Shown piece by piece: positions 58,378 through 63,405 of a stretch of 64,000 nt of DNA. A program made the position numbers and the translations under genes. Origin of the DNA: an uncultured Planctomycetales bacterium (lineage in GTDB: Bacteria; Omnitrophota; Gorgyraeia; Zapsychrales; Fredricksoniimonadaceae). The stretch is from positions 155,709 through 219,708 of the forward strand of contig CAZOXU010000002.1 of assembly GCA_964583975.1 (NCBI GenBank), given 5' to 3'. The stretch's first letter is position 1. The number at the start of each line of letters is the position of its first letter. The notes below the pieces were generated by a model, which was not told the origin of the DNA, searched no databases, and saw only the letters and a list, made by a program, of their open reading frames with translations.

Positions 58378-59022
58378 TTAATTATACACATCTTCCCTTT
58401 TTAAGGGAATGAAATTTGACCAAAACATTATTTGAGCCACATCTTTAAGTTGAAGGATTTTACATATCTTTTCAAGCCTCACACCCTGACTAAATAAATC
58501 TTTAGCCCTCTCTAAACGTCGCCCTCCTCTGATTACACGTGGCGGCAACATTAACAAAACAATATGCAAAGTCGGATTATCATTTATAAAGCCTATTTTA
58601 ATGCCATATTCTAGTACTTCTCTAAGCAATACAATACTCAAATTAACAACTTTTGGCTTAACGTCTTTAACCAATTCAGCTTTATATCCTTCAATAACAG
58701 CTGGTGTCACTTCAGATAATTTCTTAACCTGAGGATATACTCTAAGCAAGAAATTAGAAAAATGTTGGCAAGTTAATGCGAAGCGCTTGAGACTTTTAGG
58801 TGAAAACTCTCCCTTTGCGTACTCTAGAAATTGCTGAAAAAAGACTCTTACTTCTATTTCACGAACAACTGTTAAAGCTTCTCCCTTAGAAATCTTGGCT
58901 TCAATCTCTTGGAGCATTTTATGCGCTTGTTGTTCATCGCTACCTGCCAACTGAGAATACATTAGGCCACGTGCAAAGAATTCAATGTAATAAACATCAT
59001 CTATTTTACGTATTTGTCCCAT
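58378..59022 (-). pseudogene. truncated tyrosine integrase (arm-binding and SAM-like core-binding domains only; catalytic domain missing)
   Basis: 214 aa. N-terminus IRKIDDVYYIEFFARG (arm-type DNA-binding), then a SAM-like core-binding region (FFQQFLEYAKGEFSPKSLKRFALTCQHFSNFL...VTPAVIEGYKAEL). No RHRY catalytic domain. Sits 20 nt from tRNA-Ser. Confidence 0.55.
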
Positions 59023-59107
59023 AACTTTTACCTTTAAAAGTTGGTTATTATATCAAAATAGAAATAAAATAGTCTAGAAAACTGCTCGCCATGGGATATT
59101 ATTAATC

Positions 59108-60538
59108 ATGCTTTTTAACTCATTTGAATTCCTGGTATTTTTTGTCCTGGTTTACGGACTTTATCTGTGCCTTAAACACCGAGCTCAAAATTGGCTTTTA
59201 ATCATTGCTAGTTGCCTCTTTTATGCCGCCTGGAGCTGGAAATTCCTTTTTTTGATGTTCGCTTCTATAAGCACGGATTTTTGGTGTAGTCATTGGATTG
59301 CCCGCACCCAGGATGTTCGAAGAAGACGCCTCTACTTAGGCATAAGTATCGGTGTTAATTTAGGCATCCTCGGATTCTTTAAATACTTTAATTTCTTTAT
59401 TAGCAATTTCCAAGACCTTCTTTTGGGGATGGGATTCCTATCTTCTTCAACCCGCTGGATGATTGATATTATTCTTCCTTTAGGCATTTCATTTTATACG
59501 TTTGAAGCAATTTCCTATGTGGTGGATGTGTACAAAAGAAAAGTTAAGCCTGCCGATAATTATTGGGATTATGTGCTTTTTGTGATCTATTTCCCCCATT
59601 TAATTGCTGGACCCATTATGCGGGCTAAGAATTTTATTCCTCAGGTGGCCCTTCCTAGAAAAATTACTCTAACTGGATTCTATGAAGGATGTTTTCTCTT
59701 TTTCTGGGGACTGTTTGAGAAAATATTTATTGCAGATAATTTAGCCAAATTTGTAGATCCTATTTTTGCTGCTAACGCTCCTTACAATGGAGAAAAAGTC
59801 CTTTTGGCCCTTTATGCATTTGCTTTTCAAATCCTTTGTGATTTTGATGGGTATTCCAACATGGCCCGTGGTATGGGCAAATGCATGGGCTTTGATATAG
59901 CTGTTAACTTTAGGCAACCTTATTTTTCGACAAATCCACGGGAATTTTGGCAAAGATGGCATATCACTCTTTCTTCATGGCTAAGAGATTATGTGTACAT
60001 CCCTTTAGGAGGAAATCGTCAAAATACAATCCGAACCTATCTCAATCTCTTTTTGACCATGCTCATAGGAGGCTTGTGGCATGGAGCTTCTTGGACATTT
60101 GTTCTTTGGGGCGCCTACCAAGGAACCCTATTGGTAATACATAGACTTTTAGAACCCTTTCTACAACGATCCCGACCAACCCTTCCCTTACTGGTTGAAA
60201 AGGCTTGGAAAGCAGTCAAAATCCTTTTCTTTTTTCAATTCATTTGTTTAGGTTGGCTACTGTTTCGTTGCACTTCTCTACGACAAGCCAGCGAAATGTT
60301 GGCAGCCATTGGTCATTTTTTAAGTTTTCCTACATGGACACCCGTAGACTTCTGGCTTCCTGCTCTGGGAATTTTCCTCGCTATGTTTGTGGGATTCTTT
60401 CAATACAAAACCGACAATCCAACAGCTCTTTTGCAATGGCCATGGTGGCTAAGAACAATATTCTATATTACATGCTATTTTCTAATTATTTTCTTGGGGT
60501 GCGAAGGTGGAAAAGAATTCATTTATTTCCAATTTTAA
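59108..60538 (+). CDS. MBOAT-family membrane O-acyltransferase (AlgI/DltB/PatA-like)
   Basis: 476 aa. [12 protein letters not shown] N-terminus and the conserved His region ([22 protein letters not shown]) typical of AlgI/DltB. Confidence 0.85.
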   Translation: [476 protein letters not shown]

Positions 60539-61520
60539 AAAGATACCTTTAGCAGCGACAGCTGCACTATTGTTCGTATTGCTGTTTGAAGCTTTTAATG
60601 TGGCTTTTGACCGCCGCATGGATGAATTTCCTTATGATGGCCTCTTTATTACAATCAAAAATAAAATCTCCCAGACAAAAGATACAAATTTTGATGTGTT
60701 GATCATGGGAGACTGCTTTAATCTAGAAGGTGTTAATGCCCGACTCATTGAAAATGCTACTGGTCTTAAAACATTTAATTATGCTACCTTCTCCAATCAT
60801 ACCGTTGTCTCATCCTATCTTCTTCTCAAGAACCATTTACAGCACAATAGTAAAAAACCTCGCTACATTGTCATGAATTTTATCCCTGAACCAACAGCCA
60901 TATCAGAGAAGAATTTCTATCAAAAACATTTGCCATTTATGTTTCATATGAAAGATGGAAACTTTATTTCTTTTACCAATGAGCTAGGGTTTAATAAAGC
61001 CGTTCAATTACAAATTCCTTCCTTAAAGAATAGGGATTTCTTTCTTAAAGGAAGATTTACAAAGGGTTTGGCTACGAGTCAAGAAATTAAAGATTTTGAA
61101 AATAATCTAATAGTGAACCGAGGACAATATACTCGCCATCAAACAGAAAGCTATCTTAACTGCCTGCCTCCTACCAGCCTTGTTTTTAATTATCAACCAA
61201 GCCTGTTTTTTTTAAAGTACTTACATAAAATCTTGGATTTAGCCAAGGCCAACAATATCATTGTCTTGTTTCCAATGTTTAGCGCACCTGAGGATATGTA
61301 TAACAATCTCTATGCCACCTCCCATATCCCAGAAATATACTTTAATCTCTTGGTTGAACTTAAGAAACAATACCCCAATCTTGTGTTCTGGGGATGGCAG
61401 GACGACTTTTCAGATCGTGGATTATATCGGGATTGTATTCATTTGAATCAGAAAGGGTCTACGATGATGAGTCAAAAACTTGCTGATATTATTCTAACTA
61501 TTAATAACAAAACGCATTAA
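60507..61520 (+). CDS. membrane-anchored partner of MBOAT (AlgJ/DltD/PatB-like SGNH-type), with GDC in place of GDS
   Basis: 337 aa with an N-terminal TM anchor. Block I VLIMGDCFN (Cys where SGNH enzymes have the Ser nucleophile). C-terminal DCIHLN (DxxH block V). Overlaps the MBOAT gene by 32 nt. Confidence 0.55.
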   Translation: MEKNSFISNFKKIPLAATAALLFVLLFEAFNVAFDRRMDEFPYDGLFITIKNKISQTKDTNFDVLIMGDCFNLEGVNARLIENATGLKTFNYATFSNHTVVSSYLLLKNHLQHNSKKPRYIVMNFIPEPTAISEKNFYQKHLPFMFHMKDGNFISFTNELGFNKAVQLQIPSLKNRDFFLKGRFTKGLATSQEIKDFENNLIVNRGQYTRHQTESYLNCLPPTSLVFNYQPSLFFLKYLHKILDLAKANNIIVLFPMFSAPEDMYNNLYATSHIPEIYFNLLVELKKQYPNLVFWGWQDDFSDRGLYRDCIHLNQKGSTMMSQKLADIILTINNKTH

Positions 61521-61599
61521 TGGCGCTCTGCTTCGCTAAAGCTTCGCAGAACCTGTTCCTACGAAGCTCAAATGTAAAAAACATTTGAGCGAAGTAGAA

Positions 61600-61688
61600 C
61601 GGAGAGGGTGAGATTTGAACTCACGGTCCGACTTACGCCGGACAACGGTTTTCGAGACCGCCCTATTCAACCACTCTAGCACCTCTCC
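61600..61688 (-). tRNA. tRNA-Ser (anticodon CGA), long variable arm
   Basis: GGAGAGGTGCTAGAGTGGTTGAATAGGGC 5' half. Anticodon arm GCGGT-CTCGAAA-ACCGT. 89 nt, no encoded CCA. Confidence 0.8.
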
Positions 61689-61722
61689 AAAAAACGAATG
61701 TTTTTTGGATTCCGAGCCTAAC

Positions 61723-61998
61723 TTAAGGCGAGGAATCAAATCTATTAATTTGCACTAAGCTTAAGGATAACTTTTTCTCTCTAGAAAATCTCTTTACTTC
61801 CTTCTCCCGTTTACGTGCTTCATTATAACTACCACAAATCTCTTGATACATCAGCTGCACTGGTCCTCTAAACTTTGTATATCTGCACGCACGTCCTTTA
61901 TTATGCAAACCTACTCGTTTATCTACATCTACAGCTATACCCACATATAAATCACCTGTTCGGCATTCAATGATATAAAGTGACCATTGTTCTTCCAT
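61723..61998 (-). CDS. small GIY-YIG nuclease family protein (YhbQ/UPF0213-like)
   Basis: WSLYIIECRTGDLYVGIAVDVDKRVGLHNKG ... YNEARKREKEVKRFSREKK fits the GIY-YIG core. Start placed at MEEQW (61998). The ORF-track extension to 62070 runs into a GC-rich repeat. Confidence 0.65.
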   Translation of the reverse strand: MEEQWSLYIIECRTGDLYVGIAVDVDKRVGLHNKGRACRYTKFRGPVQLMYQEICGSYNEARKREKEVKRFSREKKLSLSLVQINRFDSSP

Positions 61999-62127
61999 AA
62001 CAGATTTCTCACCAGTTAGATCTCTCGCTTCGCTCGAGACCTTCGCGCCTTCGGCGCTCGGCTCTGCCACCTCTCCAATCCGCCTAAGGCGGATTGGATC
62101 CCGAGCTCAACCTAAAGCGAGGGATCC

Positions 62128-63405
62128 TTAAGTATTTTTCTTAATAATATCCACCCCACCCATATATGGGCGAAGGACCTCAGGGACAATAACATTCCCT
62201 TCCTTGGTCTGATAGTTTTCTAGGATGGCAATCATGGTACGAGGCAGGGCAACGCCAGAACCGTTGAGGGTATGGACAAAACCTTTTTTCTTACCGTCTT
62301 TACCTTTATAAGAAATATTGGCCCGACGGGCTTGAAAATCTTCAAAATTAGAACAGCTAGAAGCTTCTAACCATTTATCAAGGCCTGCTGCATAAACTTC
62401 AATGTCATAACATTTAGCAGCTGCAAAGCTTAAATCACCACTCGCCAATAAAAGAACACGATACGGGATATTAAGCAACTCAAAAACCTTGGTGGCATTA
62501 GCAAGCAAGGCCTCTAATTCATTATAGGAATTCTCGGGACGGACAAATTTGACTAATTCGACCTTATCAAACTGATGGACTCTTACTAGCCCCCTTGTAT
62601 CCTTACCATAAGACCCTGCTTCACGACGAAAACACGTTGTGTATGCTGTGTAATAGATAGGCAATTCTTCTTCGGTTAGAGTTTCATCACGATGAATATT
62701 AGTCACAGGAACTTCTGCAGTTGGAATTAAGTATAAATCATCATCTTGCAGATGATACATATCTTCCTTCATCTTGGGCAACTGACCAGTGCCGGTCATA
62801 GAAGCTGTATTAACCAAGACTGGCGGAGCCATTTCCTTATAACCATGCTTCGAAGTATGCAGATCCAACATAAAGTTATATAAAGCACGCTCCAGGCGAG
62901 CACCTAGCCCCTTATATAAAATAAAGTTAGAACCACTCAATTTCGTACCTCGTTTAAAATCAATAATATCTAGTTCTTCAGCAATTTCGATATGGGTTTT
63001 AGGCTTAAAGTCTAAACTGGGTTTCTTTCCCCAAATGTTCACTTCTTTATTAAGTTCAGGACTTCCTACCGGGACTGACGAATGAGGCAGATTTGGAATC
63101 ATTAAAAGAACATGACTCATCTCTTCTTCGATCTTCTTTATAACAGGATCTATAGCATCAATTTGCGAGGCTATAGCCTTCATGGAAGCAATTTTCATCT
63201 TAGGATCAAGCTTATCTTTAACCATGCGGCCAATCTCTTCATTCGCAGCATTTTTCTGGGCTTTTAATTCATCAAGCTCCATAATCAGGCTACGGCGATC
63301 GCCATCCAATTTTAAAAGACGCCCTAAATCAAGCTGGACCCTTTTTGCTTCTAGGCCGGCTTTAACTTTATCTGTATTTTCGCGGATATATTTGAGATCT
63401 AACAT
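62128..63405 (-). CDS. serS: serine--tRNA ligase
   Basis: 425 aa. N-terminal coiled-coil arm and class II motifs (FRREAGS, GSGVALPRTMIAILENYQ). Confidence 0.9.
   Translation of the reverse strand: MLDLKYIRENTDKVKAGLEAKRVQLDLGRLLKLDGDRRSLIMELDELKAQKNAANEEIGRMVKDKLDPKMKIASMKAIASQIDAIDPVIKKIEEEMSHVLLMIPNLPHSSVPVGSPELNKEVNIWGKKPSLDFKPKTHIEIAEELDIIDFKRGTKLSGSNFILYKGLGARLERALYNFMLDLHTSKHGYKEMAPPVLVNTASMTGTGQLPKMKEDMYHLQDDDLYLIPTAEVPVTNIHRDETLTEEELPIYYTAYTTCFRREAGSYGKDTRGLVRVHQFDKVELVKFVRPENSYNELEALLANATKVFELLNIPYRVLLLASGDLSFAAAKCYDIEVYAAGLDKWLEASSCSNFEDFQARRANISYKGKDGKKKGFVHTLNGSGVALPRTMIAILENYQTKEGNVIVPEVLRPYMGGVDIIKKNT

Follow-up and report, generated by a model that had tools for sequence, protein, structure and literature searches.

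A small GIY-YIG nuclease gene set between a tRNA-Ser stump and an intact tRNA-Ser(CGA) gene: a candidate miniature selfish cassette of Candidatus Omnitrophota

The DNA analysed here, referred to as the window, is a stretch of 64,000 nucleotides (nt) from a genome assigned to Omnitrophota (assembly GCA_964583975.1, contig CAZOXU010000002.1, positions 155,709 to 219,708). On its minus strand lies a gene for a GIY-YIG nuclease of 91 amino acids (aa), which is placed between a 5' fragment, or stump, of a tRNA-Ser gene and an intact tRNA-Ser(CGA) gene, and which is bracketed by the hairpins H3 and X upstream and H1 and H2 downstream. A second H1-H2 pair stands ahead of the stump. Read from the seryl-tRNA synthetase gene serS to the tRNA, the order is serS, H1-B, H2-B, tRNA-Ser fragment, H3, X, GIY-YIG gene, H1-A, H2-A, tRNA-Ser(CGA). 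On balance the evidence leads us to favour, with some reserve, the view that this unit of about 0.4 kb with a single open reading frame (ORF) belongs to a family of miniature selfish cassettes that reside on the 5' side of tRNA-Ser genes in Candidatus Omnitrophota.

All features of the locus are on the minus strand. The upstream neighbour, serS (62128..63405; Pfam Seryl_tRNA_N and tRNA-synt_2b), ends with a stop codon that abuts H1-B, the upstream copy of the first hairpin (62096..62127), which consists of a 7-bp outer stem, a tandem TC/TC mismatch (GA/GA on the plus strand) and an inner stem. H2-B (62074..62098) is a perfect 12-bp hairpin with 100% complementarity, at whose base TCC from the end of H1 pairs with GGA, nt 1-3 of the tRNA fragment. 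The fragment itself (62062..62076, 15 nt, GGAGAGGTGGCAGAG) ends in the D-loop region. It is followed by H3 (62045..62057, gcgcc-gaag-gcgc), which occupies the position of the AT-rich H3 of other loci and corresponds to the GC-rich hairpin that an earlier reading, made from the letters of the window alone (the sequence-only reading), had noticed ahead of the GIY-YIG ORF. Hairpin X (62019..62041, GGTCTC-GA-GC-gaa-GC-GA-GAGATC), whose tandem mismatch is GA/GA, adds a fifth structured element, which had not been singled out there. The GIY-YIG gene (61723..61998) starts at ATG 61998 and stops at 61723-25, its last codons and stop codon lying inside the 5' arm of H1-A (61708..61737), the downstream copy of the TC/TC hairpin. 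H2-A (61686..61709), an A/T hairpin, abuts nt +1 of the tRNA, and at its base TCC pairs with GGA of the tRNA. The intact tRNA-Ser(CGA) gene (61600..61688) was found by Rfam (RF00005, 55.1 bits) and by ARAGORN, which made it one base longer.

The encoded protein is a single GIY-YIG domain. The Pfam match (PF01541, E = 1.9e-14) covers residues 28-99 of the long ORF, and phmmer searches of the PDB returned 1zg2 (UPF0213 protein BH0048, E = 7.6e-14) and 1ywl (EF2693, E = 2.9e-07); by these matches the protein belongs to the UPF0213/bacterial Slx1-like branch of GIY-YIG. Across 27 homologs, whose names, where given, are those of Omnitrophota or Omnitrophica proteins, Y8, Y18, R28, N33 and E65 are invariant, H32 is nearly so, and the GIY and YIG motifs are kept. 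The ratio of nonsynonymous to synonymous divergence (dN/dS) was 0.08-0.15 where calculable, with synonymous sites saturated between all copies. Judged by these ratios the protein is under strong purifying selection, and the combination of low nonsynonymous divergence with saturated synonymous sites implies that it is functional and has been maintained over a long time.

The public annotation of the gene (115 aa) starts at GTG 62070 and would read through the fragment and the hairpins; ATG 61998 is the real start. Similar N-terminal extensions are present in P0015, P0017, P0019, P0020, P0023 and P0026, with tails such as '..EEQSDERSD..' running through X and the tRNA fragment, and such extensions in public gene calls are probably artefacts of annotating hairpins. 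Searches of NCBIfam, PADLOC and PHROG gave no match for the 91-aa protein, nor was one found in T-even phages; distant homologs in phage and viral data were limited to 25 phage records and seven IMG/VR loci. An origin from a phage or a defence system was set aside, given the missing PADLOC, PHROG and NCBIfam matches and the small number of distant phage homologs.

The direct repeat described in the sequence-only reading is real: 61674-61737 and 62062-62127 align over about 64 nt with 78% mean column identity, and a degenerate 31-nt pattern for H1 has two exact matches in the window against 0.00 expected from shuffles. Copy A holds as a repeat with its start at 61680 instead of 61681, and the tRNA duplication in copy B extends over 15-17 nt (62062-76) instead of the 11 first proposed. 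H1-A and H1-B are related by two compensatory base-pair changes and have the tandem mismatch in common, and the H2 hairpin is kept in both copies with entirely different sequences. X has the same design as H1 with GA/GA in place of TC/TC, and its arms are reverse-complementary to those of H1. An alternative fold is therefore open to the stretch from H1-B to X, a single long imperfect palindrome that has the tRNA fragment close to the middle.

Comparison of 19 H1-H2 modules gave 98% of cells paired in H1, double changes at 8 of 10 pairs and an invariant TC/TC; in the outer stem of X, all six pairs covary around an invariant GA/GA. The hairpin sequences were picked and trimmed by eye and the pairing percentages lean toward the proposed structure, so the weight rests on the covariation and on slid-partner controls. 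A wobble-pair test for the folding strand revealed both G-U and A-C pairs, in H1 as well as in X, and singled out neither strand, nor RNA as opposed to DNA. In most homologous loci the 3' arm of X holds a Shine-Dalgarno-like GAGAGG.

Hairpins of this kind might be a generic REP-like repeat or a terminator, the tRNA match being due to chance and the gene between the two copies being an ordinary YhbQ-like one. This would agree with the form of H2, an A/T hairpin followed by T's, and with the occurrence of H1-H2 without an ORF in some relatives. The sequence-only reading had named this outcome as the one that would overturn it, and the distribution of the hairpins runs the other way: a blind structural scan of the window found three, all at this locus, bar chance-level matches, and at GIY-YIG loci they are clustered at the ends of the ORF. 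Among 690 kb of serS-centred loci from many phyla and of viral loci there were two ahead of tRNA-Ser genes, both in Omnitrophota, and the tRNA-Ser genes of other phyla have no such hairpin leader. A promoter and terminator scan called no site at the locus, which led us to drop a plain terminator. A generic repeat or terminator is thus extremely improbable and effectively refuted; on this distribution, the H1-H2 module is neither.

Rfam scans gave no other assignment. With E-values up to 10, the region yielded the tRNA and noise only and no intron family, and three homologous loci scanned at the gathering threshold yielded tRNAs only, which indicates that the modules correspond to no described RNA family, intron or riboswitch. 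A tRNA-like fold of the 5' module was rejected by inspection, since the fragment finds no partners for the D and acceptor stems. A group I intron in the tRNA gene was likewise rejected: there is no Rfam intron match, the upstream piece lacks a matching 3' part, and nothing is missing from the downstream tRNA.

The same chromosomal position was compared in relatives identified through SerS. The serS loci closest to that of the window are all from Omnitrophota metagenome-assembled genomes, and SerS homologs of up to 93% identity exist; the empty and ORF-less relatives are 85-90% identical in SerS and hence not very close. A search for related genomes that lack the insert, which the sequence-only reading had called for, led to locus L172 (SerS 85%), an empty site in which serS is followed by a plain 36-nt spacer and tRNA-Ser(CGA), with neither hairpins nor cassette ORF. 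In L174 (SerS 85%) the tRNA is elsewhere, and the AT-rich upstream region holds no modules. The closest relative compared at the DNA level, L176 (SerS 90%), has H1-H2 directly ahead of an intact tRNA-Ser(CGA) and is devoid of the fragment, H3, X and the ORF; its H1 is identical to H1-B of the window at 29 of 32 positions, and its H2 resembles H2-A. L177 (SerS 86%) has serS, H1, H2 and the tRNA, again without the ORF. As far as these loci show, the empty, occupied and degenerate states expected of a selfish element are all present in the clade. The arrangement in L176 could date from before the insertion, or could just as well have arisen by a deletion from one direct repeat to the other; the combination of a B-like H1 with an A-like H2 fits a crossover between the repeats.

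The comparative data support the earlier proposal of a GIY-YIG cassette at the 5' side of the tRNA. The target duplication that had been coupled to it is too simple, because the upstream H1-H2 also occurs in relatives that have no ORF and because the fragment was not newly copied from the tRNA beside it; a target-site duplication of the kind made by transposases is therefore an improbable origin of the repeat. The window fragment differs from the adjacent tRNA-Ser(CGA) at nt 10-11 and matches the tRNA-Ser(CGA) 5' end of L172, L174 and L177 at 15 of 15 positions. The D-stem of the intact window tRNA is CUA/UAG, a compensated pair of changes, instead of GCA/UGC. These sequences would fit a stump that represents the former resident 5' end and a present 5' part that was supplied or converted, and the mismatches could also stem from ordinary divergence.

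Copies of a tRNA 5' end, 15-33 nt in length, are present at at least 12 loci, 71-150 nt ahead of the ATG. They end in or just past the D-loop region and usually match the downstream tRNA exactly; at tRNA-Glu loci, the fragment is the 5' end of tRNA-Glu instead. Such recurrence, with a switch of the fragment wherever the downstream tRNA is tRNA-Glu, also argues against a chance tRNA match beside a generic repeat.

Exact-protein look-ups and a metagenome scan provided 91 loci in total. A tRNA gene on the same strand lies downstream of the ORF in 21 of 21 distinct homologs (at least 56% identity, on a contig with room downstream), 18 of them at tRNA-Ser genes (TGA, GGA, GCT, CGA) and three at tRNA-Glu genes. 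The distance to the tRNA is about 40-180 nt except at two nested loci (L081, L115), and most loci share the order H1, H2, tRNA 5' fragment, H3, X, ORF, H1, H2, tRNA. The Glu-linked proteins fall into a single clade of a neighbour-joining tree, and close neighbours within the Ser clade stand at different anticodons. This scatter points to movement among tRNA-Ser genes; by the tree, the target class follows the protein and the particular tRNA-Ser gene does not. Other tRNA-Ser genes are preceded by ORF-less units (X, H1 and H2, or H1-H2 alone), often with a full copy elsewhere on that contig (L086, L081, L100, L110), and H1 occurs in tandem in L105, L110 and L131. Between genomes the GIY-YIG proteins are 64-71% identical as against 50-56% for SerS, a hint of horizontal spread. 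The recurrence, the empty site and the ORF-less relatives support the suggestion, made from the window alone, of a mobile or selfish element rather than a housekeeping YhbQ homolog; both mobility and DNA cleavage are what we infer from these sequence comparisons.

The boundaries between the paralogous loci L110 and L106 are blurred, as the tRNAs and further repeats are themselves similar. The orthologous serS-GIY-tRNA-Ser(TGA) loci L102 (118-319) and L106 (2350-2420), are 96-99% identical, except that the stretch immediately before the tRNA fragment has been replaced: H1-H1-H2 in one locus stands against about 190 nt of hairpin-rich, unrelated sequence in the other, beginning within H1. Distant homologs located away from tRNA-Ser (L137, L165, L168, L149, L142, L138) have an X-type hairpin, ATCCTGAGCG..CGAAGGAT, just upstream; in L138, a full tRNA-Tyr precedes the ORF and a tRNA-Tyr 3' fragment follows it. 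This hairpin is similar to a repeat that seems to be translated as '..SEATKDL..' in annotations of metagenome-assembled genomes.

Other GIY-YIG lineages are nested at tRNA-Ser genes as well, in the order partial tRNA-Ser copy, ORF, intact tRNA-Ser, and occur in Desulfobacterota, Planctomycetes, Elusimicrobia, Patescibacteria and Omnitrophota. In the Desulfobacterota loci L078 (2350-2780) and L069 (3296-3735), serS is followed by nt 1-36 of tRNA-Ser(TGA), two GC hairpins in the anticodon loop and the rest of the anticodon stem, and then by a GIY-YIG ORF and an intact tRNA-Ser(TGA), in whose D-loop the stop codon falls. Homologs of this type, 60-67% identical, are present in Planctomycetes, Elusimicrobia and Patescibacteria, and all three cross-phylum loci examined (L187, 1100-1550; L189, 925-1555; L188, 1080-1640) are at tRNA-Ser(TGA) with a disrupted partial copy. 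The Patescibacteria locus has reversed polarity, with the intact tRNA first, then the ORF and a 3' partial copy. The disrupted tRNA-Ser(TGA) copies carry small GC hairpins exactly in the D and anticodon loops (CCCGCC-N4-GGCGGG, TCCGCC-N4-GGCGGA); these echo the anticodon-stem sequence, which suggests fold-back repair scars. In a third lineage (L081, 3461-3856; L162, 399-767), the ORF lies behind a tRNA-Ser copy that breaks off after the T arm and has two hairpins inserted in the T loop (GGTTC|...|GAATCC); the whole is stacked directly behind a cassette of the window type, ahead of the same tRNA. Tandem repeats of about 105 nt downstream of some tRNA-Ser genes (L106, 2890-3100; L162, 840-1400) consist of a tRNA 3' fragment and a two-hairpin T-loop insert.

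The loop positions of these breakpoints bear on a second explanation, in which the unit is a hairpin-ended, transposon-like element: X and H1 would be terminal inverted repeats able to fold, as single strands of DNA or as cruciforms, the GIY-YIG protein would recognise the folded ends and the folded tRNA-gene DNA and insert at loop-coding positions, and ORF-less X-H1 units would be non-autonomous derivatives resembling miniature inverted-repeat transposable elements. Such an element would account for the reverse-complementary arms of X and H1, for covarying stems around an invariant 2x2 mismatch, as expected for structure-specific recognition, for the ORF-less X and H1 units with or without H2, for the tandem H1 copies and for the fact that three element types have their breakpoints in the D, anticodon and T loops, and reading of structure requires no DNA-binding domain. 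Against it stand the lack of a target-site duplication of fixed length and of a known transposase fold, the absence of copies away from tRNA genes, bar one possible solo hairpin in L112, the tRNA-Glu loci, in which X and H1 share the design and not the sequence, and the failure of the wobble-pair test to single out either strand. To our knowledge, strand transfer is not an activity of GIY-YIG enzymes, which likewise counts against this explanation; we consider it quite unlikely.

A related, more general proposal is tentative and in our view rather doubtful. There may be a so far unrecognised class of chromosomal mobile elements of about 0.4 kb, made up of several lineages in at least five phyla, in which a bare GIY-YIG protein is guided by structure, namely by its own mismatch-bearing hairpin ends and a folded, cloverleaf-like strand of the tRNA gene. 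Insertion would take place at positions that code for tRNA-Ser loops (D, anticodon, T), and with every such event the tRNA would be restored and hairpin units lacking an ORF would stay behind as non-autonomous offspring.

The selfish cassette has a genuine, if unlikely, competitor in a host function connected with tRNA-Ser. The gene could be a host or domesticated gene for a cellular enzyme tied to tRNA-Ser, such as an RNA or DNA nuclease acting in tRNA metabolism or in the repair of highly transcribed tRNA loci, and would be kept beside its substrate gene in the manner of serS and tadA; the hairpins would then be regulatory or processing signals of a shared transcript and the fragments by-products of local duplication. 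Strong purifying selection with saturated synonymous sites fits such a gene, as do the Shine-Dalgarno-like sequence in the 3' arm of X, the presence of serS at the locus in several lineages (the window, L086, L102/L106, L078 and L069) and the proximity of tadA. Prokaryotic Slx1-like GIY-YIG proteins are moreover fused to, or encoded in operons with, methyltransferases including a homolog of TrmH (tRNA Gm18), from which Dunin-Horkawicz et al. suggested a role in RNA metabolism (PMC1564403). A host gene does not readily agree with the patchy presence of the unit at the same locus among close relatives, the placement of neighbouring branches of the protein tree at different tRNA-Ser anticodons, the ORF-less remnants and tandem debris, the stacking of two unrelated GIY-YIG subfamilies ahead of one tRNA (L081, L162), the cross-phylum homologs of 60-67% identity, and a sister clade that has moved to tRNA-Glu with a matching fragment.

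As to genomic context, serS followed by tRNA-Ser genes is a widespread synteny: serS and then tRNA-Ser(TGA), tRNA-Ser(GCT), tRNA-Arg(ACG), tRNA-Ser(CGA) and tRNA-Ser(GGA) form a conserved cluster in Nitrospirota, Desulfobacterota and other phyla (L001-L080). The gene tadA, which encodes the tRNA-Arg(ACG) deaminase, is often nearby in Omnitrophota loci.

For the selfish cassette, which we prefer, the following mechanism can be proposed. The nuclease would nick or cut the DNA of a tRNA-Ser gene, probably in the D-loop-coding region where the stump ends, and an occupied tRNA-Ser gene would be the template from which the break is repaired. The tRNA sequence would supply a portable homology arm on either side, the left one being the stump and the right one the entire tRNA, and would allow the cassette to move among the 4-5 similar tRNA-Ser genes of a genome as well as between genomes. 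Use of the tRNA for both arms would account for the choice of a multi-copy, highly conserved gene family as target and for the constant match between the stump and the target class. Since a complete tRNA 5' part forms the end of the cassette, every insertion would restore a working tRNA and leave the host unharmed. The cassette is probably transcribed together with the tRNA; X may mask the ribosome-binding site and thereby keep the level of the nuclease low, and H1 and H2 may serve to separate the mRNA, or to stabilise it, at the point of tRNA release by RNase P. The tandem debris and the ORF-less remnants would result from repeated rounds of cutting and repair.

Several observations weigh against this mechanism. 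At 91 aa the protein is the catalytic domain alone, with no C-terminal DNA-binding domain as in I-TevI or SegB, and this bare domain leaves site specificity without an evident source. Near-identical copies at different loci, the mark of recent movement, were not found among the loci gathered. Insertion is read across considerable divergence, the empty-site relatives being only 85% identical in SerS, and the long-term maintenance that the substitution pattern implies would also fit a host function. An intact and presumably cleavable tRNA-Ser survives beside the nuclease gene, and its escape from cutting is unexplained. Simple homing, finally, does not explain H1-H2 upstream of the stump or the solo H1-H2 of relatives.

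The closest known analogue of the cassette is SegB of phages T4 and T6, a free-standing GIY-YIG homing endonuclease of the tRNA cluster whose site includes the conserved T-psi-C stem-loop motif of tRNA. SegB is widely associated with tRNA genes, is polymorphic for presence and absence among relatives, spreads by homing, and drives tandem amplification of tRNA-segB segments via short homologies (PMC2330249, PMC13096335). The cassette resembles it in that a free-standing nuclease gene lies between genes, not in an intron or intein, and in its presence or absence at the same locus among relatives, here of 85-90% SerS identity. It differs in that SegB is a phage protein and the cassette protein a bare 91-aa UPF0213/Slx1-like domain on a bacterial chromosome, in the restriction to one tRNA isotype, in the stereotyped partial duplication of the tRNA and in the four structure-conserved hairpins. 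The characterised GIY-YIG homing endonucleases have a two-domain architecture (PMC3664794), in which the C-terminal domain binds DNA.

The UPF0213/YhbQ/Slx1-like proteins, represented by 1zg2 (BH0048) and 1ywl (EF2693), share family, size and the single GIY-YIG domain with the cassette protein. We know of no function assigned to them, and the searchable literature gave no description of them as linked to tRNA genes or flanked by repeats; within UPF0213/Slx1-like, nesting at tRNA genes is a feature of the Omnitrophota subfamily and of some relatives only. Integrative elements directed at tRNA genes resemble the cassette in using a tRNA gene as a safe landing site, in regenerating an intact gene by means of a partial tRNA copy, and in leaving a fragment at the other junction. 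Islands and prophages with a tyrosine integrase are kilobases long, encode the integrase and usually duplicate the tRNA 3' end; the cassette, in contrast, measures about 0.4 kb, has no integrase besides its single 91-aa ORF, and duplicates the tRNA 5' end. REP/BIME elements with RAYT, the ends of IS200/IS605 and integron attC sites share with the cassette imperfect hairpins with variable stems, a conserved fold with conserved unpaired bases, and ORF-less derivatives. These systems rely on HUH or tyrosine recombinases and have many dispersed copies, whereas the cassette has a GIY-YIG nuclease as its sole protein, and its hairpins are confined to the fronts of tRNA-Ser and tRNA-Glu genes.

Bacterial GIY-YIG cassettes nested at tRNA genes were not described in the searchable literature, whose coverage is incomplete and is no proof of novelty, and the element is apparently undescribed. 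If our reading is right, it would give one branch of the large UPF0213/bacterial Slx1-like family a concrete, testable role and would extend the SegB idea of a GIY-YIG nuclease tied to tRNA genes from phages to the chromosomes of uncultured phyla. The cassette would be a minimal selfish element, made of one 91-aa domain and four hairpins, with the tRNA itself as portable homology. It would also explain stray tRNA fragments, hairpin-bearing pseudo-tRNAs and the spurious N-terminal extensions of proteins annotated as 'GIY-YIG nuclease family protein' in metagenome-assembled genomes. Should the nuclease read structure and not sequence, a programmable or structure-specific nuclease of very small size could be gained from it.

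The other side of tRNA-Ser(CGA) in the window is also structured. The 78 nt from the tRNA 3' end to a convergent DUF1574-like gene (61521..61598, minus strand) fold as a very stable three-way structure (-37.3 kcal/mol, z = -6.4), and the internal loops of its hairpins, TTC/TTC and GAA/GAA, are reminiscent of H1 and X. The structure is missing in the relatives L172 and L176, and this flank is at most a possible part of the cassette. Between the two tRNA-Ser genes, the window (58380-61520) has MBOAT/AlgI-like and DUF1574-like genes (59108-61520, plus strand). In L177 (3950-4780) and L172 (3916-4560), tRNA-Ser(CGA) is followed directly by a gene for a protein of about 215 aa, with a weak match to an integrase N-terminal SAM-like domain, and then by tRNA-Ser(TGA).

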